Below, in pieces: positions 1-36,517 of a stretch of DNA of 64,000 nucleotides; within the stretch, counting starts at the first letter, position 1; each line of letters begins with the position of its first letter. The notes beneath the pieces were generated by a model. It was not told the origin of the DNA. It did no database searches and saw only the letters and a program-made list of their open reading frames with translations. The position numbers were made by a program, and so were the translations under genes. Source of the DNA: an uncultured Chloroflexia bacterium. Its GTDB lineage: Bacteria; Chloroflexota; Anaerolineae; JAAYZQ01. The DNA lies in assembly GCA_963700285.1 (NCBI GenBank), contig CAVOXA010000010.1, positions 352,001-416,000 on the forward strand, written 5' to 3'.

Positions 1-48
1 CACGATCAACAACGCCAGAAGTGTCATCCAACTCTTTTTGCTGAACAT
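1..48 (-). CDS. 5' end of a gene running off the window; signal-peptide-like N-terminus (MFSKKSWMTLLALLIV), probably another substrate-binding lipoprotein
   Basis: ATG at 48 with AGGAGAGG upstream; basic then hydrophobic N-terminus resembling the SBP at 20558 (MKKQYWPSMLLMIVV). Confidence 0.55.
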   Translation of the reverse strand, partial: MFSKKSWMTLLALLIV

Positions 49-274
49 TTTACCCTCTCCTCTTGGATTCTGATTCGTAATAGCCGACGACAGTTGACGG
101 GCTTGACCAGAGCCCACCCTCGTGAAGCCGTGCGCCCTGGCAAGCAATGCCGATACCTCCCGACTCTTTTCTACCACCTCCCTCCCGAATAGGCCTGTTT
201 CCAGCCAACACCTGGCAGTATGGCCCGGAGCCAAGATCACGTGAACTACTCGTTGTTGTTGAGTAGCCGCGCGA

Positions 275-1282
275 TCAAGCCACTACCTCGGCCTTGTCGG
301 CGTCGAACAGGATGTAGGCATAGTTGCCCGGGTAATTCCACGATGGTACAGCCACAGCGGCGATCAACAACGTCCGCTCGAAAGGCGCTTCGAAGGTCTG
401 GCGCTCCGTCAAGTCGTACATGTTCAGCAGCCTGCCGAGCACAGGCACCCCTGATACCGGCTGTCCATCGAACACCGTCCGGGGAGTAATGGCTGGATCG
501 GGAATGATCAGGCCGCCCTCCCGCGGTTTGACAATGTGTGCGTTGTGTTGGTGGCCGCTGTCGCCCCGGACCACGACTTGCCTGGGCGGCGGTTGTACCT
601 CGCCCGGCAACATGCCCAGGTAACGCATGACGTTGAACACACCACGCACCCCTCTTTCTACCCACTCGTTGTAAAGCTGTCCCTGGCCGCCACAGAGGGC
701 GACGATGACCTTGGCCCCCAGGCGTTCCGACTGGCGCCACATCTGTCCGGGCCGCCACTCGTCAAAGAGCAAGATGGGCATGTTGAAGGCGCGGGCCATG
801 CCGGTGGAAACCGGATCTTTGGTGAATTCGACCATGTGAACGGAATGGTGGTCGGCCCCGTCGTGGAGGTCGATCTGATAGTCCAGATGAGACAGAAACT
901 CGCTGGTCAGCACGTCGGCGATCTGTTCGGTAATGGTTTTTACCGGCTGGGTATACTTGCTTTTTCCCGGCTCAAAGAACACGGCATTGGCGTTCTGGCC
1001 GTCGCCTGGTGTCTCGCGCGACATCTGGCCAGCCCCCAGGGGGTTGCAGACGGGCACAGCCATGATGGTACCCGACAATTCCTCGGGGTCCACCAACTCA
1101 AGCACCCTGCGGATGATGCTCACCGGCGACGTCACTTCGTCCCCGTGTATGGCTCCACTCAAGCCCAGGGTCGGGCCGGGCTTGGCGCCCTTGACCACGT
1201 GCAGGGGCAGGCGGAAATCCGAGCCGGTGGGCATCGTCGTTACCGGCAGCCAGGTGAAAGTCGATTTCAGTTTCAAGTCCAT
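275..1282 (-). CDS. Succinylglutamate desuccinylase/aspartoacylase (M14-like) family protein, copy 1; catalytic Glu position is Leu
   Basis: GPTLGLSGAIHGDE, PVCNP and DLH motifs; VALCGG where the paralog has VAECGG; start placed at MDLKLK. Confidence 0.85.
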   Translation of the reverse strand: MDLKLKSTFTWLPVTTMPTGSDFRLPLHVVKGAKPGPTLGLSGAIHGDEVTSPVSIIRRVLELVDPEELSGTIMAVPVCNPLGAGQMSRETPGDGQNANAVFFEPGKSKYTQPVKTITEQIADVLTSEFLSHLDYQIDLHDGADHHSVHMVEFTKDPVSTGMARAFNMPILLFDEWRPGQMWRQSERLGAKVIVALCGGQGQLYNEWVERGVRGVFNVMRYLGMLPGEVQPPPRQVVVRGDSGHQHNAHIVKPREGGLIIPDPAITPRTVFDGQPVSGVPVLGRLLNMYDLTERQTFEAPFERTLLIAAVAVPSWNYPGNYAYILFDADKAEVVA

Positions 1283-1319
1283 AGTTCCCCCCACAGGCAC
1301 AAGCTACAGGCCGCGCCCG

Positions 1320-2326
1320 TCAGTCCAGTACCTCCACGTCCGGGCCGTCGGCATCGAACAGGATGTAGGCATAGGTGCCAGGGTAGGACCACGCCGGTCC
1401 AACCACCGCGGCAATGAGAAGCGTACGATCGAAAGGCGCCTCGAATTCCTGCCGCACCGTCAGGTCGTACATGTTGAGCAGTTCGCCCAGGACAGGCACT
1501 CCGGTCACCGGCTGGCCATCAAAGACCGTCTGTGGCGTGATGGCCGGATGCGGAACAATCAACCCCCCCTCGCACGGTTTCAGGATGTTCGCGTTGTGCT
1601 CGTGACCGCTGTCGCCCCGTACCATGTACTGCCTGGGCGGCGCTTCCACCTCGCCCGGCAGCATGTCGAGATAGCGCATCACATTGATAGTGCCTCGCGC
1701 GCTCCGCTCCACCCACTCATTGTAGAGCGCTCCACCGCCGCCACACTCGGCGACGATGACCCTGGCCCCCAAACGCTCGGACTCGCGCCACATTTGACCC
1801 GGCCGCCACTCGTCAAAGAGCAGGATGGGCATGTTGAAAGCCCGGGCCATGCCCTTGGAGATGGGATCCTTGTTGAACTCGATCATGTGGACGGAATGGT
1901 TGTCGCCGCCGCTGTGAAAGTCGATCTGGAAATCAAGATTGGCCAGAACCTCGGCAGCCAGCACATCGGCAATCTGCTCGCTCACCGTCTTGACCGGCTG
2001 CGTGTACTTGGTCTGGCCTGGCTCGAAAAAGACCGCATTGACGTTCTGGCCATCACCCGGCGTCTCACGCGATAGTTGGCCAACGCCCAGGGGATTGCAG
2101 ACAGGCACAGCCATCACCGTACCTGACAGTTCCGCCGGATCCAGCAACTCGAGTACCCTACGGATGGCACCTATGGAAGGCGTGACCTCGTTTCCATGTA
2201 TCGCACCGGTCAGGCCCAGCGTCGGACCCGGCCGCACGCCCTTGACCACGTGCAAAGGCAGGCGCAGGTCAGAGCCATCGGGCATTGTCGTCACTGGCAA
2301 CCACTGGAACTCGATTTCACACTCAT
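1320..2326 (-). CDS. Succinylglutamate desuccinylase/aspartoacylase family protein, copy 2; probable 1-nt deletion near 2311
   Basis: HGNE, DFH and VAECGGGG motifs; GGAGG RBS precedes ATG at 2326 (MSVKS), which is out of frame with the body by one base and matches the copy 1 start (LKSTFTWL). Confidence 0.85.
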
Positions 2327-2480
2327 TGCTTTTCCTCCACCTAACCAAGTGGCAAGACCGATCCCGTGTTCTGTGAACCGTCTGTTCGGGTTGTCGATCC
2401 AGCCACCATGGCGCAATAGGCCCAGATCTGGGCGTTACTCACCTCACGGAAGGGGCCTCTGGATGGGTCCCAATGGCAGT

Positions 2481-3295
2481 TCATGGTACGTGATCGCCGC
2501 GCGTGTCACGGTGGGGTCCCCGAATGTTGTATTTCCCGGCGCCGTACCCCCCATCCACCGCAACGTACTGACCGGTGACGAACTCGGCCTGATCCGAGGC
2601 GATAAATAGCACCATGTTCGCTATGTCCTCGGGGCGTGCAAGTCGCCCCAGCGGCATGGCCGTCAGGTGGTTTGCCACATACTCAGGCGTGGCCCCTCCA
2701 TGGCGAGAGACTTCGGAAACATCGGTCAGACCGGGGCTGACACAGTTCACAGTGATCCCATGCTTGCCCAACTCCAGGGCCATCACCTTGGTCAGCATCA
2801 CGACAGCAGCCTTGGAGGCACAGTGCGGCGCTGCCTGGATCCGGGCATTGGCAGCAGCTCCAGAGCCGATGTTGATGATCCGGCCACCGTCCCCCTGCTT
2901 GACCAACTGGCGAGCCGCAGCGCGGGAGCACAGGAAGGCACCCTTCAACTGAACGTCCACCTGATAGTCCCAATCCTCCTCCGTGAGATCCACCACCTCT
3001 TTGTGGACCCCGACGCCAGCATTGTTGACGAAAACATCTAGACGCCCAAAGTTCTCCAACACGGCTGCCATCATGGCGTCCACCTGGTCAGCCTTGGAGA
3101 CATCTGTCGTGCAAACCAGCACCTCCCCCCCTCGTTCCGCAGATTGTCTGCGACCATACCGGCCCATTCCTGGTCGACATCTGCGATGACTCCTTTTGCG
3201 CCTTCCCGCACAAAGGCAGTGATGATGGCCCGGCCAATACCCGAGGCCGCGCCTGTGACCACGACGACCTTGTCCTCAAAACGCCCGTTATTCAT
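2481..3295 (-). pseudogene. SDR family oxidoreductase split by a 1-nt deletion in a homopolymer near 3125 (probably a sequencing error); HxxxK active-site motif
   Basis: ORFs 3071..3295 and 2481..3167 join into a paralog of 3400..4203; C7 here versus C8 in the intact copy; TGAASGIG, NNAG, PHCASK. Confidence 0.85.
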
Positions 3296-3399
3296 ATTGC
3301 CCCTCCTGATTCGACCTGCAATCTTGGTTCTACCCAGCGCCGCTCGTGGAACGGGCGCTCTGCCGGCCAGATTCCAGCGGCGGGAGCAACCAGGTCCCG

Positions 3400-4203
3400 C
3401 TAATAGCGATCGCTTTGGTGAGGTCCCCGAATAGAGAGCTTACCTGCACTATAACCCCCATCCACCGTGATATGCTGGCCGGTAACGAACTCGGCCTGAT
3501 CCGAGGCGACAAAGAGCACCATATTCGCTATCTCCCTGGGATCGCCCAGGCGACCCAAGGGCACGCTGCTCAAGAACGCCTCGATGTACTCGGGCGAGGC
3601 TCCTCCATGGCGAGAGACTTCTGAAACATCGGTCAGACCGGGGCTGACACAGTTCACAGTGATCCCATGCTTGCCCAACTCCAAGGCCATCACCTTGGTC
3701 AGCATCACGACACCGGCCTTGGATGCACAGTGCGGCGCCGCCTGGATCCGGGCATTGCTAGTTGCAGTGGAGCCGATGTTGATGATCCGGCCACCACCCC
3801 CCTGCTTGACCAACTGGCGAGCCGCAGCGCGGGAGCACAGGAAGGCACCCTTCAACTGAACGTCCACCTGATAGTCCCAATCTTCCTCCGTGAGATCCAC
3901 CACCTCTTTGTGGACCCCGACGCCAGCGTTGTTGACGAAAACATCTAGACGCCCAAAGTTCTCCAACACGGCTGCCATCATGGCGTCCACCTGGTCAGCC
4001 TTGGAGACATCTGTCGTGCAAACCAGCACCTCCCCCCCCTCGTTCCGCAGATTGTCTGCGACCATACCGGCCCATTCCTGGTCGACATCTGCGATGACTC
4101 CTTTTGCGCCTTCCCGCACAAAGGCAGTGATGATGGCCCGGCCAATACCCGAGGCCGCGCCTGTGACCACGACAATTTTGTCCTCAAAACGCCTGTTGTT
4201 CAT
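3400..4203 (-). CDS. SDR family NAD(P)-dependent oxidoreductase (HxxxK variant)
   Basis: TGAASGIG, NNAG, PHCASK, VNCVSPG; AGGAGG RBS; ATG overlaps the upstream stop. Confidence 0.9.
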   Translation of the reverse strand: MNNRRFEDKIVVVTGAASGIGRAIITAFVREGAKGVIADVDQEWAGMVADNLRNEGGEVLVCTTDVSKADQVDAMMAAVLENFGRLDVFVNNAGVGVHKEVVDLTEEDWDYQVDVQLKGAFLCSRAAARQLVKQGGGGRIINIGSTATSNARIQAAPHCASKAGVVMLTKVMALELGKHGITVNCVSPGLTDVSEVSRHGGASPEYIEAFLSSVPLGRLGDPREIANMVLFVASDQAEFVTGQHITVDGGYSAGKLSIRGPHQSDRY

Positions 4204-5366
4204 TTGCCCCCTCCTAGTTTGAACTGCAATGGTAATTCGACCCAACGCCGCTCATGGAACGAAAGCTCCACAGCGTTAACCACTTCCTGCACCCAAGCCC
4301 CATCCTCAAAATTTCCCTGATTCCGCTCGCCACCGTCCAGGATCTCGTCGATAAAGTCCTTGATCAGGTTGGCATAGAACAGGGAGCGCCACGACTCGCG
4401 TGGGTGCCCACCCACCGGATAGAACCGCTGCGGGATCTCTAGCTCGCGGAACTCGACATCGTCCGGCGTGGCGACCTTGATCGTCTCTGCCAAGCCAAAT
4501 TCCTCTACGAGGCGGCAGATGACGGCTCCTTCTTGGCCAAAGATGCGGGCCTCGATGCCAGGGTAGTTGCCGACGGTCACCAGGCTCGTCTGTATGGAGC
4601 CAATAGCGCCGTTGGTGTACTCGCCGATAAAGATATCCCCATCATCCATGTTGATCTGCGTCATGCGACCGGTGTCCCGCACCATGCGTTCGGGGACAAA
4701 GTTGTGCAGGGTGCCCACGACGCGGGCATAATCGGCGCCCACCCACCAGTGGCCGATGTCGATAATGGGCGAGCCATAGCCCTCCAGGGAGCGGGTCTGG
4801 ATGGCCGACGGATCCGCCGGGCGGCCCAGAAGCCAATCGGGAGGCGTCCGCGGCATCTGTCGCAGTGGGACCTGGGGATCCAGCCATTGCGAGTTCTGCT
4901 CGTAGCCATTGAAGATGAAAGGTCTGCCCACAAAGCCCTCGTCGATGAGGGACTTGGCATAGAGCACGCCAGGGCTGTAGCGGAAGGTGAAGCCGAGCTT
5001 GGTCTTGAGGCCCTGGCTCCTGGCCAGTTCCGCAGCCCGCAGCGTATCGCGATAGTCGTAGGCCACCGGCTTCTCACACAGGATGTGCTTGCCCGCCTCC
5101 AGCGCTGCCCAGGCGAGTTCAAAGTGAGCCGATGATGCGGTGGCGACATCGATCACATCGATATCGGGCCGCGAAACGACGGCCTGCCAGTCACCGGTCG
5201 CGTCGGGAATGTCAAACTGCCGGGCAAAGTCCCTGGCTCGCTCCGCCACCACATCGCAGATAACCACGACCTCGCAGCGGGGATCTCGCAGCCAGCCGGG
5301 GATATGGGCCATCTCAGCCCACCTGCCCGCACCAAGTACGCCAACCCGGAGCTTTTCCCTAGTCAT
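4200..5366 (-). CDS. Gfo/Idh/MocA family oxidoreductase
   Basis: KLRVGVLGAG Rossmann start, GKHILCEKP motif; start MTREKL overlaps the upstream gene end. Confidence 0.88.
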   Translation of the reverse strand: MTREKLRVGVLGAGRWAEMAHIPGWLRDPRCEVVVICDVVAERARDFARQFDIPDATGDWQAVVSRPDIDVIDVATASSAHFELAWAALEAGKHILCEKPVAYDYRDTLRAAELARSQGLKTKLGFTFRYSPGVLYAKSLIDEGFVGRPFIFNGYEQNSQWLDPQVPLRQMPRTPPDWLLGRPADPSAIQTRSLEGYGSPIIDIGHWWVGADYARVVGTLHNFVPERMVRDTGRMTQINMDDGDIFIGEYTNGAIGSIQTSLVTVGNYPGIEARIFGQEGAVICRLVEEFGLAETIKVATPDDVEFRELEIPQRFYPVGGHPRESWRSLFYANLIKDFIDEILDGGERNQGNFEDGAWVQEVVNAVELSFHERRWVELPLQFKLGGGK

Positions 5367-6603
5367 GCAGATTTTCCTCCCCAACCACAAACTCGCCATC
5401 CAACAGTACAGCGCGGATATTCCCTGGCTTGCGCAACAGCGACACATTGGCCGTGGCATCGCCATTCACTGCTACCAGATCAGCCTTGAACCCTGGGGCC
5501 AATCGTCCTACCGTATCCTGCATGCCCAGGCAGGCGGCAGCCATAGAGGTACCCGCCCGGAGAGCTTCCAGGGATGAAAGACCTGCGTCGACCAGGTATT
5601 CAAGTTCCCTGGCATTCTCGCCGCGGACCCAATCGCCGATGTCGGTGCCCAGGCAGATCCGAACGCCCAGCTCCCTGGCCCGTTCCAGGCGTTCCGCCTG
5701 CAGGGACACGAGACTCCGCGCAGAGCGCAGGCGCGGTGGCTCATCATCCCCCGGGCCCGTGGTCGCGGTCTCTATTAGGTAGCGCTCGGCGCTCAGTGTA
5801 GGCACCAGGTAGACACCCTGCTCGGCCATGAAGGCCAGATCCTCATCGTCAAGGGGGCCCAGATGCTCGATGGAGCGGACCCCAGCCCTGAGCGCGTTCT
5901 TGAGCCCTGGGCCGCAGTAGGCGTGGGCGGCCGTGGGCAGACCGAATGCCTGTCCCTCTTCCACGATGGCTTGTACTTCGGCAAGCGAGAACTGCCTCTG
6001 AGCGTAGCTCCCCCGCACGGCACCCACAGCGCCAGTCGTCGCTACCTTGAGAAAGTCGGCGCCCGCACGGATGATCTCCCGGGCCTTGGCCCGTACGCCG
6101 TCCACCCCGTCAGCAACGCCGTCGGGGATGCCAGGCAGCCGGGGTACGTTCCGGCGCAGACCGCTGGCCGGGATAAAGCCATCGGCTAACCCCGCGGTCT
6201 GGGTGATGATCACCAGGCAGATCTGCAATCTCGGCCCCGAGATCAGGCCCGATTCCACCGACTGTTTGACCCCCAGATCCACGCCAGCACAGTCCCGCAC
6301 GGTGGTAAAGCCCCGTTCCAGCGTCAGCCGCAGGTTGAGCGCCGTCTCGAGCACGGTCCGGCTGATGGGAGTATAGGCATTCGTCGCCAAGTCGCCGCCG
6401 GGATAGGCCAGGTGGTCGTGGCAGTCAATCAGGCCAGGCATTAGCGTCGCGTCACCAAGCTCACGGACAGCCACGCCTACTGGCCGGCCCACTGTTTCCG
6501 CCGGACCGACGGCCTCGATCCTGTCGCCATCGATGAGCACCGCACCACCACGGAGCGAGCGATCACCATCGAACAACCTGTCGGCCGTAAATAAGCGATG
6601 CAT
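5359..6603 (-). CDS. Metal-dependent amidohydrolase (prolidase-like subtype)
   Basis: PGLIDCHDH, GFTTVRD, GADFLK, HAY, IEH, GTD, GFKADLV. Confidence 0.88.
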   Translation of the reverse strand: MHRLFTADRLFDGDRSLRGGAVLIDGDRIEAVGPAETVGRPVGVAVRELGDATLMPGLIDCHDHLAYPGGDLATNAYTPISRTVLETALNLRLTLERGFTTVRDCAGVDLGVKQSVESGLISGPRLQICLVIITQTAGLADGFIPASGLRRNVPRLPGIPDGVADGVDGVRAKAREIIRAGADFLKVATTGAVGAVRGSYAQRQFSLAEVQAIVEEGQAFGLPTAAHAYCGPGLKNALRAGVRSIEHLGPLDDEDLAFMAEQGVYLVPTLSAERYLIETATTGPGDDEPPRLRSARSLVSLQAERLERARELGVRICLGTDIGDWVRGENARELEYLVDAGLSSLEALRAGTSMAAACLGMQDTVGRLAPGFKADLVAVNGDATANVSLLRKPGNIRAVLLDGEFVVGEENLHD

Positions 6604-6604
6604 C

Positions 6605-7684
6605 CTACGGCAACTCCAAGCCCAGTTCCTGGCGGTACAGGTCCAACTCTTCCAGGTTCTCCCAGCCCATGGAGCGCTCGCCACGTTCTATCTCGTATAT
6701 CATTTCGACCAATCGTTGATTCAGGGGCACCGGCACTCCATACTCCAGGGCCTTGTCCACCACGGCGCCGGTCAGACCCGGTGTTTCGGACGGCCGGTGG
6801 CGGTAGACAATGTCCCACCATACACCACTGGCAGTCTTGACATAGTCGTGGGGATCCTGAACCTGATGGCGAGAGAGCCTGTCCAGGTAGTTATCCAGGT
6901 AGTCCAGGATACGCAGCGTATCCTCTGGCGTCCGGGGCTGATACATCTCGGGATCAAAGGAAGCGCTGGCCGGTAGGGAGACACCCGCCGCCCAGGCTAC
7001 ATCTAGAGCCTCACCGACCAGGATGATCCCCAGTCGCCGGTATCTATCGACGTCAAGAACTTGGTGTACGGAGGCGTCTACCAGGGCGGTGAGTGTGATC
7101 TGCGAAAAGTAGCACTGTTTGCCCCAGATCTCACCCACGATATTCCCCGAGACGTAGGTCGTCGTCAGATGCTTAAACCCACTTTCCAGCCATTGGATGC
7201 GGGGCGTGACTGCACCGTTCAGCTCGCCAATGTGGATGGGGCCCTCGTGCACAAACTCGATGTGGCCTGGCTCCACGAGCGCGCCGCCATAGTTGGGAAC
7301 CGTACCGACAATCTGAGAGGCGTCCACAAAGGCCTGAAGGACCTCGACGTTGAAGCCGTTCTGCAAGCTCACGACGATGGTTTCAGACGTGAGGAGGGGC
7401 TGAATCGACCCCATCGCCTCTACGGTATGGTGGCTTTTGACGCCGAGAAACAGCACGTCCAGGGGCTCAGCGAGTTCCGTGGTCAGGCAGGCCTTCACGT
7501 CAAAGTGCTTCACCCCACGGACGCCATCGGTGTACAGTCCCCTGGTCCGCAGGGCTTCTACGTGCTCCCGCCAACTGTCCGTCAAGGTGACATCGTAGCC
7601 TGCGCCGGATAGATAGGTTCCGGCCAGGCCTCCGATGGCGCCTGCACCCACTATGACAATTCGATGCTTGTCCAGATCATTCAT
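6605..7684 (-). CDS. Ketopantoate reductase (PanE/ApbA) family protein
   Basis: GAGAIGG, LGVKS, SLQNG, IWGK, RPSE; C-terminal GVPVPLN. Confidence 0.8.
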   Translation of the reverse strand: MNDLDKHRIVIVGAGAIGGLAGTYLSGAGYDVTLTDSWREHVEALRTRGLYTDGVRGVKHFDVKACLTTELAEPLDVLFLGVKSHHTVEAMGSIQPLLTSETIVVSLQNGFNVEVLQAFVDASQIVGTVPNYGGALVEPGHIEFVHEGPIHIGELNGAVTPRIQWLESGFKHLTTTYVSGNIVGEIWGKQCYFSQITLTALVDASVHQVLDVDRYRRLGIILVGEALDVAWAAGVSLPASASFDPEMYQPRTPEDTLRILDYLDNYLDRLSRHQVQDPHDYVKTASGVWWDIVYRHRPSETPGLTGAVVDKALEYGVPVPLNQRLVEMIYEIERGERSMGWENLEELDLYRQELGLELP

Positions 7685-23664: not shown

Positions 23665-23714
23665 ATCCTATAGGATGCAGGATCCATTATACCAGGATCA
23701 TATATCGCTGTCAA
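23665..23714 (-). promoter_or_regulatory. Consensus sigma70 promoter TTGACA-17-TATAAT plus downstream palindrome ATCCTATAGGAT (putative operator)
   Basis: -35 at 23709-23714, -10 at 23686-23691, palindrome at 23665-23676. Confidence 0.85.
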
Positions 23715-24288: not shown

Positions 24289-24312
24289 GGACTCTATTCC
24301 TCGCTCCCTTGT

Positions 24313-27829: not shown

Positions 27830-29056
27830 TCAGACCAGGCGCTGGCCGGCTTTGAAGGTCATCTGGACCTCTTCGAGCGCGTCTAGATCCTCCAGGGGAT
27901 TGCCGGCCACGACGATGACGTCGGCCAGCTTGCCCGCTTCCAGCGTACCCAACTTATCATCAAGCCCGTTGAGCCAGGCTGCGACGCTGGTCGCGCTGCG
28001 CAGCGCACCATAGTTGTCGGGTACCAGGCCCAGCTTGACCAGGAACTTGAGCTCGGGTGCGACGATATCGTGGCCCACGGCCGGGCTGCCGGCATCGGTG
28101 CCGAAAACGATGGGAACTCCGGCCTTGGCCGCGGCCACAAGGCTGTCATAGCGGCTGGGATCGGCCACAGCGCGCTGGCGCTCGGCGATCTTCCACTCGG
28201 GTATGTTGTACTTGCGCGCCACCTCAGGCTGGGCCTGCATGACTACCGGCGCCATGGTCGTGACGATGGGGATCCCACGGTCCAACAAAAGCTGGATCGT
28301 CTCCTCGCTCATCTGACCACCGTGCTCGATGCAGTCGATGCCAAAACGGGCGACCCGGTTGATGCAGGCGTCAAAAGTGGCATGGGCCGTGGTGGGCAGG
28401 CCATTGCGATGCGCCTCGTCGATGACGGCCTCCAATTCAGCATCGGTGAACTCGAGTGTATCGTGGCAGCCCATGATCTTGATCAGGTCAGCCCCACCGC
28501 GAACCTGATCGCGCACAGCGCGGCGCATTTCGTCAGCCCCGCTGGCCTCTCGGCAGGTCCAATAGGTATGGCCACCTGTCTGTACAATCGACTCACCCGT
28601 GATCAGCAGGCGCGGGCCGGGGTAGATCCCTTGCTCCACGGCCTGCTTGGCGGCAAAGTTGGTCGCGTTGACGCCCAGGTCCCGCACGGTCGTGACACCG
28701 GCCCGCAGCGAGATTAGCATGTTGCTCGCATACTTGTAGGCGCTGATCTCCGGGCTGTCAAAGATCGATTGCTGGGCCAGATCGTGAATTCCGTCCCACC
28801 CCAGGTGGGCGTGGCTGTTAAAGAGACCGGGAAGCAAGGTACCCCCGGTGTCGATCACATCGGCATCGCTTTCACCCAGCTCAGCCGCGCTGCCCACGGC
28901 CTTGATCCGGTCGCCATCGATCTCGACGAAACCATCCTCAAGGATCGTATCACCCACGCAGGTTAGTAGCCGTCCCTTCAGGACAAGGTGCTGCGGTGGC
29001 GGGTCGTACAGAGGTTTTATCAGTTTTTGAAACCGCCAAGCCGGTTGCTCAGGCAT
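27830..29056 (-). CDS. Metal-dependent amidohydrolase (prolidase-like), third paralog
   Basis: PGLFNSHAH, GVTTVRD, GADLIK, HAT, IEHG, GTDAG. Confidence 0.88.
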   Translation of the reverse strand: MPEQPAWRFQKLIKPLYDPPPQHLVLKGRLLTCVGDTILEDGFVEIDGDRIKAVGSAAELGESDADVIDTGGTLLPGLFNSHAHLGWDGIHDLAQQSIFDSPEISAYKYASNMLISLRAGVTTVRDLGVNATNFAAKQAVEQGIYPGPRLLITGESIVQTGGHTYWTCREASGADEMRRAVRDQVRGGADLIKIMGCHDTLEFTDAELEAVIDEAHRNGLPTTAHATFDACINRVARFGIDCIEHGGQMSEETIQLLLDRGIPIVTTMAPVVMQAQPEVARKYNIPEWKIAERQRAVADPSRYDSLVAAAKAGVPIVFGTDAGSPAVGHDIVAPELKFLVKLGLVPDNYGALRSATSVAAWLNGLDDKLGTLEAGKLADVIVVAGNPLEDLDALEEVQMTFKAGQRLV

Positions 29057-29099: not shown

Positions 29100-30443
29100 C
29101 TAGACCTCGGAGGTTTTCGAACGAACCCCCCGGTTCGCAACCTCCGAAGTCTGGTCTAGATAGAGACCATATTGTGCTTGTACCAAAGGCAGGATACCCA
29201 GCCGCTCCAATTGCTCTACCGGCGCCATGACGCTGGCCAATACCAAACCCGGCGCCCGACCGATCTCGAGGGAGCCGGTGATGGTCACCCTGTTCCTCAC
29301 CTCGTCCAGGCTCATATCCAGAAGGTGCGCCGTCCTTTCCAGGGCATTCTGTACCGCCGCATTCAGATCCGGCCCGGAGCCGACAACCTGAATCGGCGCC
29401 ACCTGCTCCAAGTCCGTGTCCCACTCTGTGGCCAGTTTTCGCGCCTGCTCCACCTCTACCTGGCTGTAGGGCTGGCACAGAAAGGGCAGATCCTCCGCCG
29501 GTGGCAGCAGGACCGGCCCCTGCAAAGCCAGCCTCTTGATAACCTCAACGCTGAGTGTCACCTCGGCTGAGACGTCCGTGGTATGACCGGCGATCTCGCC
29601 ATCGCCCTGCATGGCATGCACGTCACCCAGATAGACGCCTCCGCCCTGTACCTTGACCGGGCAGATCAGGATGGCGCCTTCCCGAACAGAGTCTGCGTCC
29701 AAGTGGCCGTCGGTCAAGGCATCGAACTCTTTCGGGCTCAGGCCCTCCTCATGGAGGCTCTGGCCAAAGTCGCCGCAGTTGCAGGAAGCAGAGATATCCA
29801 TGGCCGGGACAGTGCCGATGTTGCCAATGAAGGGCCTCATGCGGGTCAGGATCCCACCGCGGAGATCGGCACTGGCCAGGGCCAGCACGGAATGCTGCTT
29901 TGAACTGGGCGGTAGGGCCGTGTACCAGGCAGCCTCGCGGGCGATATCCGCCGCCTTCCCGCCACCAACCGTGAGCCCAAAGATCCCCGTATCATCAAAG
30001 ACCATGGTATAGCCAGAGGTGATCCGGGAAGGCATGGCCTCTGCCCCACAGTTTTTGCATTGAATCGCCCCAGGGCCAATGCCCGCCACGACCGTAGCAG
30101 GAAACTCGGCATCACACCGAGGGCACTTTCTTATGACCTGGGAACCACGCTTGAGCCTGGTCCCTTCGACAGACGCACCTGTACCCGAGGCAGTGGCCCT
30201 GGATCGAAGGGCGATCTTGTGGATGCGGATGGCGATCGCATCGCCGACCTCAGCACCCTCCACGGCAATCGGTTCGGTGATCTCGTGCCCGCCATCCAGG
30301 TGGGGGGTGATCATGGGCCCCCAGCAGCCGGGGGCCGTTCTGGCGACGATGGTCCCCCCATCTTGGACCGGCCCAAGCATGGGCAGGCTCGGTCCTACAT
30401 TGCAGCCGGCGATTTTGACATCTGTGATAACTCTGAGAGCCAT
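29100..30443 (-). CDS. Acetamidase/formamidase family protein with a CxxC..CxxC insert
   Basis: HEITEPIAVEGAEVGD, PFIGNIG, GDVHAMQGDGE; CPRC and CKNC. Confidence 0.8.
   Translation of the reverse strand: MALRVITDVKIAGCNVGPSLPMLGPVQDGGTIVARTAPGCWGPMITPHLDGGHEITEPIAVEGAEVGDAIAIRIHKIALRSRATASGTGASVEGTRLKRGSQVIRKCPRCDAEFPATVVAGIGPGAIQCKNCGAEAMPSRITSGYTMVFDDTGIFGLTVGGGKAADIAREAAWYTALPPSSKQHSVLALASADLRGGILTRMRPFIGNIGTVPAMDISASCNCGDFGQSLHEEGLSPKEFDALTDGHLDADSVREGAILICPVKVQGGGVYLGDVHAMQGDGEIAGHTTDVSAEVTLSVEVIKRLALQGPVLLPPAEDLPFLCQPYSQVEVEQARKLATEWDTDLEQVAPIQVVGSGPDLNAAVQNALERTAHLLDMSLDEVRNRVTITGSLEIGRAPGLVLASVMAPVEQLERLGILPLVQAQYGLYLDQTSEVANRGVRSKTSEV
29102..29152. repeat. REP-like palindrome AGACCTCGGAGGTT...AACCTCCGAAGTCT inside the 3' end of the acetamidase gene
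   Basis: 14-bp arms with one mismatch and an inner CGAACC/GGTTCG hairpin; translated as QTSEV..KTSEV. Confidence 0.7.
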
Positions 30444-30465: not shown

Positions 30466-30497
30466 AGACTTCCGAAGGCTCAGGACCTCGGAAGTCT
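30466..30497. repeat. REP-like palindrome AGACTTCCGA...TCGGAAGTCT, related to 29102
   Basis: 10-bp perfect arms; overlaps the TAG stop of 30496..31896. Confidence 0.65.
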
Positions 30498-31896
30498 ATG
30501 GAATCTGCGGCTTGATGACGGGCCAGGAGACACTCAGCCCGATCCTTTCACCGTAGCCCGCTTCCCGGATCATGGCCGCCTGGGCCTCGCGCGCCCGGGC
30601 CACAACCTCCTCTTCGTCAAAAACCGTACTGCGCCCGTCGCTCAAGATCACGCTACCGCCGACCAGTACTGTGTCGGCCTGAGTGCTCACTCCCGAGTAA
30701 ACCAGGTTGCTGACCAGCATCGCATCGGGCACCAAATGCAACTGATTGCGCCGGAAGAGGGCGATGTCAGCCTGCTTGCCTGGTTCCAGGGATCCCACCC
30801 GGTCGTCCATGTTCAAGGCCGCCGCGGCCTTGATGGTGACCATCTCCAGGGCCTGTTCCGCTGTGCCCAGATAACGGTCGCCGGATTGGGAGCGTTGCAG
30901 ATAGACGGCCAGTTTCATAGCCTGCCAGATATTCTGCCCGTTGTTCGAGTTTGAACCATCGACGCAGATGGCGACCCGTGCTCCCAGCTCTTCCAGATCC
31001 CAAATGGGTGGGGGCTGGTTGCCTGTGCGCAGGGCCTGGTCGGGACAGTGGGCGATCCGCACCTGGCGACTGCCCAACAATGCCAACTCCTCCTCCAACA
31101 GGCCAGTCCGGGTACAGTGTACGGCCAGCAGTTCTGGCCCGAGCAGACCCAGGCTGTCCAGGTATTGGACCGTGCCCATGCCTACCGTTTGCAGTGCATC
31201 GGCCAGCTCCTCGCGGTGATGGCCAAGATGCATGTGCCACAATTGGCCCCGCTCCCTGGCCCAACCATACATGGCCAGGATCCCTTCGGGCGTGCAGCGC
31301 AGGGATTTGGATGCTTCCGAGTTGATGAGGATGCGCTCGGAATCGTACTTGGCTTCCAGGCGGTCTAGATCTTGCAGGGCAACCTCCGGTCGCTCCCGGA
31401 AGGGTTCCGCCATCTGCTGGCCATCGCTGAACCCCCGGCCGATGATGGCGCGCATGCCAGACTGCAGGACCGCGTCACAGACGCCGTCGGTGGAATCCAT
31501 GTGGTAGTGGGTAAAATGGCTCTCTTGCGTCGTCGTCACGCCATAGTGGACGAGTTCCAGAAGCGAAAGGCTGGCGCCCGCCCGTGCCCGTTCCCGCGTC
31601 AGACCCAGGGCCATGTGCCAGAAAGACCCGGGTGGATTGGGCTCGTTGAAACAACTCCGGTACAGACATTGGTCCAGGTGATTGTGGGCATTGACCAGGC
31701 CCGGCATGACCAGCATATCGGAAGCGTCGATGCGTTCTTTGGCCGCGAAATCTCGGACCGAACTGCTCACACCCACAACCAGGCCATCCTTGACGCCCAC
31801 ATGGCCGGGTACATAGATTCGCCGCTGGGCGTCCATGGTGAGGACGATGCCCCCCTCGATCAGCAGGTCCACAGGGATGCTTGGCTGCTTGGTCAT
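30496..31896 (-). CDS. Amidohydrolase, AtzA/TrzN/MTA-SAH deaminase-like
   Basis: PGLVNAHNH, GVTT, HMH, AVHC, HCP, CVDG, GSLEPGKQAD. Confidence 0.85.
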   Translation of the reverse strand: MTKQPSIPVDLLIEGGIVLTMDAQRRIYVPGHVGVKDGLVVGVSSSVRDFAAKERIDASDMLVMPGLVNAHNHLDQCLYRSCFNEPNPPGSFWHMALGLTRERARAGASLSLLELVHYGVTTTQESHFTHYHMDSTDGVCDAVLQSGMRAIIGRGFSDGQQMAEPFRERPEVALQDLDRLEAKYDSERILINSEASKSLRCTPEGILAMYGWARERGQLWHMHLGHHREELADALQTVGMGTVQYLDSLGLLGPELLAVHCTRTGLLEEELALLGSRQVRIAHCPDQALRTGNQPPPIWDLEELGARVAICVDGSNSNNGQNIWQAMKLAVYLQRSQSGDRYLGTAEQALEMVTIKAAAALNMDDRVGSLEPGKQADIALFRRNQLHLVPDAMLVSNLVYSGVSTQADTVLVGGSVILSDGRSTVFDEEEVVARAREAQAAMIREAGYGERIGLSVSWPVIKPQIP

Positions 31897-33381
31897 GCGT
31901 TCTCCTCCCAATTGGGGAAGGCAGGCTCATAGAAGTCGGTCAGAGGCTGGCCCCTGTAAGTAGTCTCTGCCGTCCTGGCATAGAGCTTGCGGTTGAACCG
32001 TTCAGCGCCGGAGCGCACCTGTTCCAGGTCAATGCCAGGGAGCCGACCCCGTTCAACGAGGGTGGCGCCGTCGACAATAACGGTATCCACATCGCTGCCC
32101 TGGGCGCAATAGACGAGCGCTTTGATGGGGTCATCAGCCGCGACCGGGCCGATGTGGGTGCGCTGTAGATCGACCAGGACAATGTCAGCCTTGGCGCCAG
32201 GCACCAGGCGCCCGATGTCGTCGCGCAGCAACGCCCGCGCCCCACCCAGAGTGGCAGCGTCCAAGACCTCACGGGCCAGGCCAGAGGTCGCATCCCCGTC
32301 AGCTAGTTTGCTTAACAAGGCAGCTGTGCGCATCTCCATGACCATGTCGTGGGGCGAGGTGTCGGTGCCCAGCGAGACCGGGATGCCGGACCGTACATAG
32401 TGGGAAAAGGAGTGGAGCGCCACACCACTCCGGGCAAACACCACGGGGCAATGGGCCACGCTGGCGCCGCTGGCGGCAATAAGCTGAACATCGGTATCGT
32501 CATCCAGCGGATAGGCCAGCCAGGGATGGCGCGTGGTATAGATGGCGTGCGTCAGGGACACCTCTGGTCCCAGAAAGCCTACCTCGTACAGGTACTGGAT
32601 GGGCGTCTTGGCCGTGCGCCGCAGGATCTCGTGGAACTCGAGCAGGTACTGGGCGACGTGGATCTTGAGTGGGCAAGCGAGTCCAGCCGCCGCCTCCTTG
32701 GAAGCACGCAACAGGTCGGGTGTACAGTTGTCGGCCTGGTAGGGAAAGAGAAAGGTGCGAATCCGGCCCTCATCCGCGCCGTCGAAGGCCCGGGCGAATT
32801 CAACGGCCTGTTCCAGGCCCTCCCAACCCTGGGCTTCCCTGGAAACCCACTCGAGGGTGCCGTCGGCCTTGCCCGCCGCGCCACCGGACATGTAGGGCAG
32901 GGCAAGATAGGCACGCAGCCCCGTCGCAGCCACCGCCTCGACCAGCTCCTGATCGGTGCCGATGCGCCCCCGGTAGGGATGGCGGCCATAGTTGGGCACC
33001 ATGACAAAGGTCGTGGTGCCGCTCGCAGCGCCGTGGCCATGGCATATTCGGCGCTGGCTCGCCAGTCGGCGCTCTGCAACCCCGGTGCGCCGTAGGCCTT
33101 CTCGGGCTGGACGCCCAGGCCAATACCGGAATTGAAAAAGTTGGGCCGGACAGCATCCAGCCGGAAGAGCTGCATGTGCACGCCAAAGGCCATGTGATGG
33201 TTGACGAATCCCGGGATGACCAGCTTGCCGCGGGCGTCGATCCGCGTATCCACCTCCCCTGCGTGGTCATGACCGACATAGGTGATGCGTTCCCGCTGTA
33301 GGCCACCTGGCCGCGGGGGAGAATCACGTGTTCGCCATTCTGAAAACCGACGACGGTTCCGCCTTCAATCAGCGTCGTCAC
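31893..33381 (-). pseudogene. Chlorohydrolase/deaminase-like amidohydrolase with two 1-nt deletions near 33290 and 33025 (probably sequencing errors)
   Basis: Three ORF pieces (MTTLIEGG / DARGKLVIPGFVNHHM / KIHVAQ, THA, HCP, LGTD) are collinear with 33378..34847. Confidence 0.8.
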
Positions 33382-34847
33382 AGCTCGCCTCGCAGTTTCG
33401 GGTAGGTAGGGGGGAAGAGAAGATCGGCAGACTCACCGCGAGGATGCTGTCCCACAAATCGATCCTTCTGCCACAGATGGGCCTCAGCCGCCTTTCGGAT
33501 CAGATCCGATTCGTCGACGCCGGATAGCTGCCCGCCATCGACCACGATCCGACCATCGACGATCACAGTATCTATGTCACTGCCGCTGGCGGCATAGACC
33601 AGGGTCTTGATGGGATCGTCCACCGGGCCGATGTGCAGCCGGCTCAAGTCCACAATGACCATGTCGGCCTTGGCCCCCGGCGCCAGCCGGCCGATATCGT
33701 CGCGGCCCAGGGCCCGGGCGCCGTCCAGCGTGGCGGCGTTGAATACCTCTCGCGCCGTGCCATGATTCGCGTTGCGGTCCGACCACTTGCAGGCCAGCGC
33801 CGCCCAGCGCATCTCCTCGATCATGTCCTGGGGAAAGGTGTCGGTGCCCAGGGGCACGTTGATGCCCATCTCCCGGTAGCGCGAGAATGAGCCCAAGATC
33901 TTGCCCCGGCGCACATAGACGACGGCACAGTGAGCCACGTGAGCCCCCCGGTCGGCCACGATCTGCAGGTCTGACCTGTCCCCTGGCGGATAGCCGGACG
34001 CCGGGTGCAGGGTTGTATAGAGCAGATGGGTCAGAATCGTCCTGTCGTCGAGAAAGCCGATGCTCTCCAGATACTGGACCGGCGTCTTGTTGTAACGGCG
34101 CAGGCAGTCGTGAAACTCGAACAGGCTCTGCGAGGTGTGCATGTGCACCGGCACTTTCAGTTCGCGGGACGCCTGTTTGACCTCGGCCAGGATCTCGGTA
34201 CAGGCATCAAACTGGTAGGGAAAGAGCATGGTGCGCACCCGGTCGTCGTGGGTACCTTCGTAGGTTCTGACGACATCCTGGGCATAGGCCAGCGCCGAGC
34301 GGGCAGCATCCAAGTCCCAATGGTACCGCCACACGCCATCGGTGTCCAGGTAGCGTTTACCCGCCCGAAACTTGTGGGAGACATAGATGCGAGCCCCCAA
34401 CTCGCCGGCGATCTCTGCCAGGAGCGGTGCCTCGTCCCGGGACACCTCAAAGCGCGAGGGGGCCATGGTCGTGATCTCGACGATGGTCGTCGAGCCTCCC
34501 TTGAGCAACTGCACCAGGGAGAAAAGGACACTCGTCCGCAGCCGCTCGCCGGCGAACTCTACCTGTCCCTTTCCATCCACGGCATAGGCGCGCGGAGAGG
34601 CAAAGCCGTCGTTGTTGGAGTCCAGGGCCAGCGTCTGCATGTCGATGTTGGCCACGGCATGGATATTGACAAAGCCGGGCGAGACCAGCTTGCCTCGGGC
34701 ATCCAGGATCTGGTCCACACGCCCACCAAAGCTTGGGCCGACGTACAGAATGTGATCATCCTCCAAGACTACGACCCCATCCCGCAGAATGGCGTGGTGA
34801 CCATTCTGGAAACCAACGACCCAACCACCCTGAATTAGTGTGCGCAC
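33378..34847 (-). CDS. Chlorohydrolase/deaminase-like amidohydrolase (HxH motif incomplete)
   Basis: GTG start after CAGGAG; PGFVNIHAV, HMHTSQ, THL, HCA, LGTD, GRLAPGAKAD. Confidence 0.85.
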   Translation of the reverse strand: MRTLIQGGWVVGFQNGHHAILRDGVVVLEDDHILYVGPSFGGRVDQILDARGKLVSPGFVNIHAVANIDMQTLALDSNNDGFASPRAYAVDGKGQVEFAGERLRTSVLFSLVQLLKGGSTTIVEITTMAPSRFEVSRDEAPLLAEIAGELGARIYVSHKFRAGKRYLDTDGVWRYHWDLDAARSALAYAQDVVRTYEGTHDDRVRTMLFPYQFDACTEILAEVKQASRELKVPVHMHTSQSLFEFHDCLRRYNKTPVQYLESIGFLDDRTILTHLLYTTLHPASGYPPGDRSDLQIVADRGAHVAHCAVVYVRRGKILGSFSRYREMGINVPLGTDTFPQDMIEEMRWAALACKWSDRNANHGTAREVFNAATLDGARALGRDDIGRLAPGAKADMVIVDLSRLHIGPVDDPIKTLVYAASGSDIDTVIVDGRIVVDGGQLSGVDESDLIRKAAEAHLWQKDRFVGQHPRGESADLLFPPTYPKLRGEL

Positions 34848-34872
34848 ACGTCGCTCCTGAAAACGCTTGCTG

Positions 34873-36330
34873 TTAGCCCTGCCCCAAGATCGAAGCGGGC
34901 GTACGGCCGATGGGATCCCGCTCAGTGGCCGCCGCGTGTAACTTGCGCATAATCTTGGGCGCAGCCGCCCGCAACTCTTCCTCGTCAGCATTCAGTACGT
35001 TTCCGCTGTCAACGATCAGATTCCCGTCCACATAGACCTGGTCCACGTCCTGGCCCGTGCCAAAGGAGACCAGAGCCCGTACCGGGTCCAGTACAGGTCC
35101 AAAGTGATAGCGGGATAGATCGACGCAGACGATGTCGGCCCGTGCGCCTGGCGCCAGCCGGCCCAGGTCGTCGCGCCGGAGCGCATCAGCGCTGCCAACC
35201 GTGGCCGCGGTGAACACCTCCATACAAGTCGGCCGGTCCACAGTCCCATTGGCATGCTTGCCCATCAACCAGGCCAACCGCATCTCGCTGATGATATCGG
35301 CTGGCCAGATATCACAACCTAGGCCGATATTAATGCCATAGTCGAGGTAGCGCGGCAGTGTGTGCAGCGCTTCGGCATCTCGCCGGGCAAAGGCAAGGGG
35401 CGCATGCGCTACGGACGAACCGGCGTCAGCGATCAACTTCAGGTCGCGGTCAGAATCGCCCCCCACGGCCGGGTGGTCGCCGACAAAAACGCAGTGGCCC
35501 AGGATGATATCCGGACCCAAGAAGCCCAAAGAATGCAAAAAGCCCACGGGCGTATCGCCTTGTCGCTGTCGCACCGTCTCGACCTCGTGAACCGACTGTG
35601 AGGTGTGGACCTGGACCGGCAGGTCCGCAGCCCGAGCCTCGGCCAGCGTGGCCGCCAACAGATCTGGCGTGCACTTTTCGACGGCATGAGGCGTAAGCAG
35701 GGTCTGGACCCGCCCATCATGGACGCCGCGGTATTCCAGGGCAAAGCGCAGGCCCTCGTGCAAACCAGCCAGACCCATTGCCTCGTCCCAGTACTGGCGC
35801 GAGACGCCATCACGATCCTGGTAAGAACGAGCCGAGCGGTAGCCAAGGGCCAGGTAGGCCCGGCTGCCGAGGCGTCCCACCGTCTCTGCCAAAGCAGCCT
35901 CGTCGGTGGGAGGATTGCCTAGCCACCAGATGGCGCCGTAGCCGTGAGCGTCGACGACAGTCGTCGTGCCGGTACGCAGCATCTGCACCAGGCAGAATTC
36001 GCCACTCAGACGCTGTTCTTCTGGTGTCAGCGTCGGCCACATCTCCAGCGGCGCCTGCTGGACAAAATCAGGACCAGGGGCATACTGTGCGGAGCGGGGG
36101 ACATCGACAAAGGGAGAAAAGGGATCTACTCCCACATGGCCGTGCAAGTTGATAAAGCCAGGGCAGATGAACCACTCCGGGCGGTTGACAACCACGTCGG
36201 CCTGCCCGTCGAACTGCGAGCCGGTGTAGAGGATCACGCCATCCTGAAAAGCTACTTCGCCACGCGCTACGATCTGGTGTTGGCTGCCCTGCCAGGCAGC
36301 CAGCCAGCCGCCCTGCAACAGTGTGATCAT
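34873..36330 (-). CDS. Chlorohydrolase/deaminase-like amidohydrolase; first gene of the operon
   Basis: PGFINLHGH, GTTT, QVHTSQ, GHC, HAP, LGCD. Confidence 0.85.
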   Translation of the reverse strand: MITLLQGGWLAAWQGSQHQIVARGEVAFQDGVILYTGSQFDGQADVVVNRPEWFICPGFINLHGHVGVDPFSPFVDVPRSAQYAPGPDFVQQAPLEMWPTLTPEEQRLSGEFCLVQMLRTGTTTVVDAHGYGAIWWLGNPPTDEAALAETVGRLGSRAYLALGYRSARSYQDRDGVSRQYWDEAMGLAGLHEGLRFALEYRGVHDGRVQTLLTPHAVEKCTPDLLAATLAEARAADLPVQVHTSQSVHEVETVRQRQGDTPVGFLHSLGFLGPDIILGHCVFVGDHPAVGGDSDRDLKLIADAGSSVAHAPLAFARRDAEALHTLPRYLDYGINIGLGCDIWPADIISEMRLAWLMGKHANGTVDRPTCMEVFTAATVGSADALRRDDLGRLAPGARADIVCVDLSRYHFGPVLDPVRALVSFGTGQDVDQVYVDGNLIVDSGNVLNADEEELRAAAPKIMRKLHAAATERDPIGRTPASILGQG

Positions 36331-36465
36331 TGGGGGCCTCCTGCGGCGCCGCCACGAGAAACAGCAGCGCTGCCCAAGTAATCCAAGCCCGATGTTGCTC
36401 TGCTACCCAGATAGCCATCAGATCGAAGAACCAGAGGGCAATGGCCTCGAGAACGAGGCTGCCTA

Positions 36466-36517
36466 TATCCTATAGGATAGATGGGGTTATTCTACAACAC
36501 CTTGGGCCTGCTGTCAA
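36466..36517 (-). promoter_or_regulatory. Sigma70 promoter TTGACA-17-TAGAAT plus downstream palindrome TATCCTATAGGATA (putative operator)
   Basis: -35 at 36512-36517, -10 at 36489-36494, 14-bp palindrome at 36466-36479. Confidence 0.85.

Follow-up and report, generated by a model that had tools for sequence, protein, structure and literature searches.

Two described kinds of catabolism are among the closest to the system reported here. Levoglucosan dehydrogenase/YjhC-type catabolism relies on oxidation by Gfo/Idh/MocA-family (Gfo) enzymes, which for YjhC precedes elimination (PMC7315737, available text). In Amadori catabolism (Gfr, Frl, Fra) a modified amino acid is taken up and cleaved to release an amino acid and leave a carbon fragment, by means of a phosphotransferase system (PTS) or a kinase plus a deglycase in the systems covered by the available text of PMC12675984. 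The window analyzed here is a 64,000-nucleotide stretch from an uncultured Chloroflexia bacterium (G000:C10:352001-416000; host genome G000, 7.05 Mb, 22 contigs, 89% complete), and its positions 1-36517 belong to a GntR regulon in which enzymes of familiar families, with altered active sites, accompany peptide transporters. Regulons of this kind are common. The present one is real, under selection, and widespread in its core.

The regulon Gfo retains the NAD motif, the EKP lysine and the substrate Arg of levoglucosan dehydrogenase and its kin, and oxidation that activates a neighboring bond is the logic proposed below by analogy with YjhC. In contrast, the Asp and His of DxxxH are replaced by Gly and Pro, a near-invariant Glu/Tyr is new, the partner is a protein with the zinc-peptidase fold of DUF885, and import is by a peptide ATP-binding cassette (ABC) transporter. 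A classical Amadori pathway was rejected, as no kinase or PTS with SIS deglycase was found in the window genes, 14 scanned genes left of the window, or 37 scanned neighbors at related loci, the last containing neither SIS deglycase nor sugar kinase. AstE/AspA deacylases (ectoine EutE/DoeB type, 6twm; Mlr6093, 2qj8) share the zinc ligands HxxE plus His with the regulon AstE, whereas throughout the regulon's AstE subfamily another residue stands in for the Arg of Asn-Arg; ectoine catabolism was rejected, with no ectoine hydrolase or other eut gene recognized within the window. A short-chain dehydrogenase/reductase (SDR, 14240-15058) has the S-x12-Y-x3-R of halohydrin dehalogenases (SDR fold, Ser-Tyr-Arg) but reads TGAARGVG (TGxxxGxG), not the T-x4-F/Y-x-G that defines those enzymes in place of the Rossmann motif (PMC4989007). 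Because TGxxxGxG is kept, it is taken as a dinucleotide-binding SDR and the dehalogenase identity was rejected. A guanitoxin-type GntC was also rejected (345 bits against a cut-off of 415). The proposal of an uncharacterized catabolic pathway, made in an earlier note on this DNA, is supported. Neither the pathway nor the enzyme subfamilies were found in the open-access literature, supplements excluded (RB-TnSeq or transcriptome tables on cultured carriers could hold data).

Organization and Control of the Regulon

For comparative analysis, the regulon was examined in G001, of the same genus as G000, and in G005, G011 and G013, representing three other genera. The window's best named protein relatives come from Anaerolineae and other Chloroflexota. 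Positions 275-36330 hold 31 genes, all on the minus strand, with Pfam and NCBIfam families matching those listed in the earlier note. That note had described two operons of at least 36 kb; the co-oriented genes and shared promoter-operator design were borne out, and the extent is corrected to four operons that together hold about 60 genes over about 75 kb, with half of this length lying left of the window. Operons 3 and 4 begin at G000:C10:346021 and 326947 and extend to about C10:313800. The regulatory and core features of the window are as follows.

36466-36517, minus strand: promoter 1, TTGACA-17-TAGAAT (36517-36489), with operator TATCCTATAGGATA (36466-36479); same site in G001
24881-25585, minus strand: GntR-FCD regulator by family match; an orthologue lies in both the G001 and G011 clusters, and in G013 one immediately follows the operator
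23664-23714, minus strand: promoter 2, TTGACA-17-TATAAT (23714-23686), with operator (23664-23677); orthologous site before DUF885c in G001, G005 and G011
21879-23579, minus strand: DUF885c, core; gluzincin-type fold, H388-H389-x3-G-H394 plus E430, catalytic Glu replaced by His
20717-21886, minus strand: DUF885b, core; short form, HExxPGH and EG intact
16773-20558, minus strand: peptide ABC transporter, core; family 5 substrate-binding protein (SBP) 18861-20558, OppB 17702-18655, OppC 16773-17705
12982-14164, minus strand: Gfo paralogue 2, core; EGYGAP, probable assembly frameshift at 13967
6605-7684, minus strand: PanE/ApbA-like reductase; core in the sister version of the cluster
4200-5366, minus strand: Gfo paralogue 1, core; EGYGSP, NAD-binding motif and EKP intact

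The palindrome TATCCTATAGGATA lies behind both window promoters, and two matches arose in none of 100 shuffles. With one mismatch allowed, the whole of G000 contained four sites against 0.25 expected from base composition, all on C10 (window positions 36466, 23664, -5979 and -25053) and each 6-9 nt past the -10 box of a TTGACA-17-nt sigma70 promoter. Four sites were present in G001, one in G011, three in G005 and two in G013, compared with zero for the reversed-pattern control. In G011, G005 and G013, all six sites that were read follow a TTGACA-17-TA.(A/C)AT promoter and head orthologues of regulon genes: DUF885c in G011 and G005, SBP-Opp-amidohydrolase-SDR and SBP-Opp-serine hydrolase-RraA in G005, and SBP-Opp-M28 and GntR-racemase-aminotransferase-Kor-Suc in G013. 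Because operator sites head orthologous operons across relatives, including the GntR gene, GntR is predicted to bind TATCCTATAGGATA and is probably the repressor acting on all four operators. The shared operator and co-conserved regulator gene support the single GntR regulon proposed earlier. An extra half-site (ATCCT or AGGATA repeats) adjoins the palindrome at several operators (window 23664 and the G011, G005 and G013 sites), which suggests that a second repressor dimer may bind.

Gene order was conserved, with orthologous operons in the four relatives. G001 was colinear with the G000 regulon at 79-92% DNA identity over the fetched stretch (to about -34.6 kb). Two tandem copies each of Gfo1 and deaminase 4 were present in G001 (C20:344398-346735; 316-319 kb) versus one each in G000, either a true difference or a collapse in the G000 assembly.

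Conserved Core and Its Distribution

The best 80 of at least 505 GTDB genome stretches containing a Gfo relative were read, and 80 metagenome loci with DUF885c were fetched (at least 530 DUF885c stretches were found), giving 160 related loci of median length 12.6 kb that are kin rather than independent samples. The core consists of Gfo(EGYGxP), DUF885c(HH), DUF885b, a peptide ABC transporter and 2-hydroxyacid/PanE-like reductases. DUF885c starts within 400 nt after Gfo in 59 of the 72 Gfo loci having downstream sequence. At DUF885c loci, Gfo was present in 47/80 and directly upstream in 30/55, while DUF885b lay directly downstream of DUF885c in 42/69. Phyla named for the Gfo loci were Chloroflexota, Armatimonadota, Acidobacteriota, Gemmatimonadota, Rokubacteria and Bacillota; a phylum search with DUF885c matched 10 of 401 genomes, two of them at 31-33%. 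Less frequent at related loci were Opp genes, GntR, the HxxxK SDR, Cc2672-like amidohydrolase, AstE, a second SDR and D-2-hydroxyacid dehydrogenase.

Gfo and DUF885c occur together on eight plasmids. A sister version of the cluster is found on plasmids of Deinococcus ficus, Deinococcus sp. KNUC1210, Lichenicola cladoniae and Ensifer adhaerens; all four operons contain Opp, Gfo, DUF885c(HH) and a DUF885b-like gene, an intact PanE-like gene is present in three, and Gfo and DUF885c overlap at stop/start. The D. ficus operon (DFI_RS14445-14490, its SBP being DFI_RS14450) reads SBP-OppBC-PanE-Gfo-DUF885c-RraA-SDR-aminopeptidase and is accompanied by IclR, an M24 peptidase and a DUF885b-like gene transcribed divergently. 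The Lichenicola and Ensifer operons comprise Opp, DUF885b, PanE, Gfo, DUF885c and a GhrA-like reductase, with VOC and a GcvA-type LysR. A TonB-dependent receptor follows the Lichenicola operon (L199:19946-22753), hinting at a scarce or bulky substrate.

The accessory pool around the core is composed mostly of peptidases, interchangeable exopeptidases among them. Peptidases (M3, M17, M19, M20, M24, M28, M29, M42, S9, S58) made up 11 of 38 scanned proteins, namely the 37 neighbors, drawn from 60 clusters without assignment plus a few flanking genes, and one window control. In G011 the gene order is GntR-MurI-aminotransferase-KorABC-SucCD. Dehalococcoidia metagenome-assembled genomes (MAGs; L070, L082, L083, L091, L098) carry the Gfo-DUF885c pair inside a conserved cluster of their own, with Ldh_2, M19, SDR, PTE, isochorismatase, dihydropyrimidinase-like, class III aminotransferase, AKR and type II dehydroquinase genes.

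Remodeled Active Sites

Alignment to solved relatives or to G000 paralogues upheld the residue changes on which the earlier note was built. His occupies the Tyr position in three SDRs (HxxxK), and one reads YxxxR; both AstE/AspA copies read Asn-Ala for Asn-Arg, and the 275-1282 copy also replaces the catalytic Glu by Leu; EGYGSP of Gfo aligns over GDIGSH/GDIATH at DxxxH, as EGYG(S/A)P in the two copies; His falls on the Arg105 position of Rid; the aminotransferase reads PGGSTG against PxNPxG in most G000 paralogues; one nitroreductase reads VGCVS for RRSxR; two deaminases lack the second His of HxH (NIHAV, NHHMA); and the three DUF885 motifs differ (HEAYPGHH in a, HExxPGH in b, HHGSIGHH over HEAIPGH in c). 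The altered genes other than the core and deaminases, with their intact neighbors, are listed below.

26617-27807, minus strand: class I aminotransferase, PGGSTG where PNNPTG is expected
25642-26028, minus strand: Rid family, His at the Arg105 position
23740-24870, minus strand: nitroreductase pair, 24313-24870 without RRSxR and 23740-24288 canonical; pair kept in G011, L056 and L148
15085-16755, minus strand: DUF885a, HEAYPGHH, third ligand Asp
14240-15058, minus strand: SDR with S-x12-Y-x3-R, TGxxxGxG intact
12179-12985, minus strand: SDR HxxxK (H3)
2481-4203, minus strand: tandem SDR HxxxK pair, 3400-4203 and 2481-3295 (frameshift near start)
275-2348, minus strand: tandem AstE/AspA (M14-like) pair, both Asn-Ala; copy 275-1282 also Glu to Leu

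The motifs searched recurred in G001, G005, G011 and G013 wherever the gene lay in the fetched stretch; the nitroreductase pattern alone found no match in G001, where the gene itself is 92% identical. Ratios of nonsynonymous to synonymous substitution (dN/dS) were below 1 for all 26 genes tested (0.03-0.19 against G001; 0.08-0.26 against other genera, where dS nears saturation), consistent with purifying selection; three deaminases, one SDR and OppC fell outside this set. Since the substitutions are correctly mapped, conserved and under purifying selection, they are subfamily signatures, and gene decay was rejected.

The SDRs keep TGxxxGxG, NNAG and the Ser of classical members, with Tyr of YxxxK replaced by His in three genes and Lys by Arg in one. 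Departures from YxxxK characterize 4/4 window SDRs versus 5/44 elsewhere in G000 (one gapped row dropped; p 0.0006), or 4/6 in the whole regulon versus 5/42 (p 0.008), and Gfo without His/Tyr 2/2 in the window versus 0/19 elsewhere (15 gapped rows dropped; p 0.005); because paralogues are not independent, all three values overstate the significance. HxxxK was kept in 17/17 matching SDR homologues and YxxxR in 4/4. A phylum search for the HxxxK SDR matched G000 only (1/401 genomes, with six candidates scored per genome, too few to be informative). Two further HxxxK SDRs occur in G000, at C10:1364264 and C10:1413385, and first-look candidates number 68 SDR, 46 amidohydrolase and 38 Gfo in this genome, a marked expansion of paralogues. 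At the AstE Arg position, at least 114 of 118 homologues have Ala, Gly, Ser, Asp, Thr or Glu; 114/120 retain the catalytic Glu, and two have Leu there. Whether such changes are common in ordinary orthologues was a doubt attached to the earlier note: this is true of the loss of Arg105, which is absent from Rid4-7 (PMC4433059, available text) while the regulon's second Rid keeps Arg in G001, and of HxxxK, which is described in a rice SDR whose activity is given as unknown (PMC8659612, available text).

Gfo meets its family description, with a Rossmann plus C-terminal alpha/beta fold, GxGxxA/G and EKP. The canonical Asp-x3-His/Tyr site (Asp191/His195 in PlIDH, Asp185/Tyr189 in AAOR; PMC11612644, available text) is occupied by Gly and Pro. 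EGYG was present in 119/120 homologues, and Lys96, Arg126, Glu192 and Tyr194 were invariant across 40 aligned sequences. The nearest solved relatives by sequence and fold were levoglucosan dehydrogenase and kin (6a3f, 4h3v, 4gqa). In a quick tree (63 rows, midpoint root, long branches flagged) EGYG(A/S)P was nested in [VIH]GYGSH, a clade sister to levoglucosan dehydrogenase-like GDxGSH, with Shimodaira-Hasegawa-like approximate likelihood ratio support of 99-100 at those forks. The order on the tree is thus loss of Asp first ([H/V/I]GYGSH) and of His next (EGYG[A/S]P). Glu appears where His goes, since His was kept in 120/120 sister-clade proteins, with Val/Ile at the position of the regulon Glu. 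Given this order and the four invariant residues, the site may represent a relocated acid/base rather than a dead site. A basal HG(Y/F)GSH clade lacks DUF885 and stands alone in G001 and G005 (L202:11051-12184; L203:5624-6757). ESM Atlas matches for the DUF885 and Gfo queries gave generic family names only.

DUF885 (PF05960) is placed in the Peptidase_MA clan, the HExxH clan, in the available text of PMC12572635. Against a cut-off of 32 bits, DUF885a scored 238, DUF885c 228 and DUF885b 25, below threshold. The DUF885c model (predicted local distance difference test, pLDDT, 94) matched DUF885 structures 3u24, 3o0y and 3iuk over its whole length (TM 0.72-0.76, Z 29-33), followed by M3/M32/MATCAP/ACE gluzincins (Z 10-14). 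DUF885c shares the two His and one Glu ligand positions of the known structures, keeping all three predicted metal ligands (H388, H394, E430). Unlike those structures, it has His in place of the catalytic Glu of active HExxH gluzincins (149/151 matches, with the third-ligand Glu in 149/149) and an insertion, DCAS(R/G), whose Cys is conserved in 134/150. The catalytic Glu is kept in DUF885a and DUF885b, and HExxPGH in 59/59 DUF885b. No published function for any DUF885 was found in the open-access literature. A metal site with His for Glu is unlikely to act on ordinary peptide bonds and could abstract a proton from an oxidized intermediate.

Three window genes are frameshifted: the SDR starting at 3295, Gfo at 13967 and the deaminase starting at 33378. 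Single-base indels were numerous in both long assemblies (G000, G001), at different places, and most dense between -10 and -7 kb and over 30.5-34.9 kb. The frameshift at 13967, the one of the three that could be tested, is most likely an assembly error because G001 and two of four public read sets lack the extra base.

Accessory Genes and Flanking Regions

The remaining regulon genes of the window form a deaminase block and a set of further genes.

34873-36330, minus strand: deaminase-like amidohydrolase 1, PRK06151-like, HxH kept, HxxE read as HxxQ; accessory block
33378-34844, minus strand: deaminase-like amidohydrolase 2, PRK06151 above cut-off, NIHAV, without second His
31893-33378, minus strand: deaminase-like amidohydrolase 3, NHHMA; frameshifted in the present assembly
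30496-31896, minus strand: deaminase-like amidohydrolase 4; two copies in G001
29100-30443, minus strand: acetamidase/formamidase family
27830-29056, minus strand: Cc2672-like amidohydrolase 3
26125-26598, minus strand: VOC/glyoxalase family
10901-12148, minus strand: Cc2672/ochratoxinase-like carboxypeptidase-type amidohydrolase 2, metal ligands intact
9138-10886, minus strand: thiamine pyrophosphate (TPP) enzyme, acetolactate-synthase-like; accessory
7715-9115, minus strand: M20/AbgB-like amidohydrolase; accessory
5359-6603, minus strand: Cc2672-like amidohydrolase 1
1-48, minus strand: start of another SBP gene; operon 2 continues beyond the window edge

The deaminase operon is a lineage-specific add-on. 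The four deaminases, formamidase, AbgB, TPP enzyme, aminotransferase, VOC and Rid had no match at 45% identity or above in the 160 loci, short as these are (median 12.6 kb), and the deaminase block was missing from the G011 cluster (60 kb read) as well as from all four cultured operons. Of 301 genomes of the class, 3 matched a deaminase query, outside G000 as roughly 40% paralogues only, and the deaminases do not travel with the core as a PRK06151-like purine/triazine deaminase pathway would require. A change absent from the earlier note's list was observed in the HxxE motif, which reads HxxQ in the PRK06151-like enzymes (30496-36330) and HLGH in the fourth enzyme; HxxQ also occurs in a Roseomonas relative and is hence among ordinary changes.

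Left of the window, the regulon contains one group with another Opp system, an SDR and a Gfo; a second with glutamate racemase, aminotransferase, KorABC, SucCD, amidohydrolase, SDR and Amidohydro_3 enzymes, isochorismatases, M20, PTE, Rid, M18 and 2-hydroxyacid dehydrogenase; and a third with a third Opp system, M28, M20, serine hydrolase, two RraA, DHDPS and a fifth deaminase-like gene. The glutamate racemase reads GCTD, not GCTH. Isochorismatase domains with and without the catalytic Cys were observed in L002:1-3433 (G000:C10:332001-335433), one of them in tandem and another joined to M20; in L035 the latter two are separate genes, so the apparent fusion may result from an assembly indel.

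Outside the regulon, 36650-64000 is a second dense catabolic region with two Amidohydro_3 enzymes, an ATC-hydrolase-like gene, three amidinotransferase/DDAH-like genes, two TPP enzymes and a PfkB kinase. We take the kinase to be FrlD-like, and one gene to be trimethylamine-methyltransferase-like and a tandem pair saccharopine-dehydrogenase-like. Twenty DNA sequencing runs contained the genome (shares 0.05-0.20), with no RNA run among those listed.

Proposed Pathway and Alternative Explanations

On balance, the regulon appears to import oligopeptides and dismantle a residue or linkage made resistant to ordinary peptidases by chemical modification, a proposal held slightly better than even. Opp systems would import modified peptides, and interchangeable exopeptidases (M18, M19, M20, M24, M28, M29, M42, Cc2672-like) with DUF885b would trim them to the modified residue. 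Gfo with NAD+ would oxidize CH-OH or CH-NH next to the resistant bond, using Lys96 and, as a replacement for the lost Asp/His, the new pair Glu192/Tyr194. DUF885c would then cleave the activated bond, by enolization/elimination or imine hydrolysis, to an amino acid plus a 2-oxo or 2-hydroxy acid, and PanE-like, GhrA-like and SDR reductases with RraA/DHDPS aldolases would process the latter fragment. Within the host's family, released glutamate may yield ATP by way of glutamate racemase, aminotransferase, 2-oxoacid:ferredoxin oxidoreductase and SucCD.

The likeliest class of substrate is non-enzymatically damaged protein residues (glycation or carbonyl adducts), a tentative choice made because Gfo belongs to a sugar-dehydrogenase clade and 2-oxo-acid enzymes recur. 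Mycosporines, cyclic dipeptides, opines, folates and ergothioneine were also considered as conceivable substrates. A bolder version, doubtful at present, is a multi-phylum deglycation, or repair by destruction, of aged residues in which the Glu/Tyr Gfo and a His-dependent DUF885 lyase would cut the C-N linkage with no kinase, deglycase or flavin oxidase.

Several observations weigh against the proposed dismantling of modified residues. DUF885c was lacking at 11/72 Gfo loci and in G000 itself adjoins neither Gfo, and kinship among the related loci means their counts are not independent. The racemase-Kor-Suc module occurs only in G000, G001, G011, G013 and a few metagenome loci (MurI 3/160). The oxidize-then-cleave chemistry rests on motif logic, and the EGYG loop of the Gfo model has low confidence (pLDDT 45-77 over residues 161-200). 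The glycation assignment needs new chemistry because known Amadori kinases/deglycases were not found here.

Heteromeric peptide hydrolysis, with DUF885c, AstE (Glu to Leu), the second nitroreductase and perhaps Gfo as non-catalytic subunits of intact neighbors, is an unlikely explanation, although DUF885c does adjoin DUF885b in 42/69 loci, the Leu copy of AstE adjoins an intact copy (Leu recurring in 2/120 homologues), and Gfo pseudoenzymes exist (PMC11612644, available text). Gfo retains the Rossmann glycine motif, Asp35 and EKP, which are absent from the pseudoenzyme described in the available text of that source. In DUF885c the three predicted metal ligands are all in place and an invariant His has been added, the Deinococcus DUF885b-like gene is transcribed away from DUF885c, and DUF885b is not directly downstream in 27/69 loci. 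The earlier suggestion that some degenerate paralogues may be non-catalytic is supported by one probable case, AstE Glu to Leu (dN/dS 0.06).

Improbable, too, is the scavenging of peptides that contain D-amino acids, isopeptide bonds or N-(2-hydroxyacyl) groups (cell-wall stems, depsipeptides, peptides with amidated or blocked ends), in which hydrolases would cut and the oxidoreductases merely dispose of hydroxy or oxo acids. Glutamate racemase (TIGR00067 above cut-off), a class-A serine hydrolase, M19 and S58 peptidases, D-2-hydroxyacid dehydrogenases, an Amidohydro_3 enzyme presumed to be D-aminoacylase-like, and the absence from AstE and Rid of the Arg that binds carboxylate are consistent with it. 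This reading does not explain, however, why a Gfo of a sugar-dehydrogenase clade is so closely coupled to DUF885c or why the peptidase Glu is lost, and neither an amidase nor a dipeptide epimerase was seen among the neighbors scanned.

The earlier note had proposed a non-standard N-rich molecule, for example an N-heterocycle with an amino-acid or amide tail; on this reading one such molecule would be dismantled, its ring opened by the deaminases and formamidase. The deaminase operon is under the same operator in G000 and G001, operons 3-4 hold the fifth deaminase-like gene and biuret-hydrolase-like isochorismatases, and a dihydropyrimidinase-like gene and an Ldh_2 enzyme occur at Dehalococcoidia loci. 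As substrate of the whole cluster, such a molecule nevertheless seems decidedly improbable, for the genes behind the idea are unmatched in the 160 loci, the block is missing from G011 and the cultured operons, and the neighbors are mostly peptidases. Misalignment, long-read error or relaxed selection in an error-prone MAG is scarcely credible and is refuted for the substitutions, standing only for frameshifts: single-base indels are indeed many in G000 versus G001, but the motifs are identical in G001 and other genera and near-invariant in hundreds of homologues, with dN/dS of 0.03-0.26.

Significance

About 60 genes are tied to one 14-bp operator and reducible to a five-enzyme core, and the pathway question is testable because this core is also present in Deinococcus and Ensifer, which are cultured and non-pathogenic. 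Four subfamilies carry selected non-canonical sites (EGYGxP Gfo, HH-type DUF885, HxxxK SDR, Arg-less AstE), and at least one is likely to perform chemistry new to its fold. The dismantling of modified residues, if true, would constitute an undescribed route for recycling damaged protein. Deglycation, if true, would in addition give DUF885 a function, that of a peptidase fold doing non-hydrolytic chemistry, and would identify one way in which refractory organic nitrogen is consumed in soils, in sediments and in the deep ocean. These findings bear on which old organic-nitrogen compounds are used by uncultured Chloroflexota and other necromass feeders.

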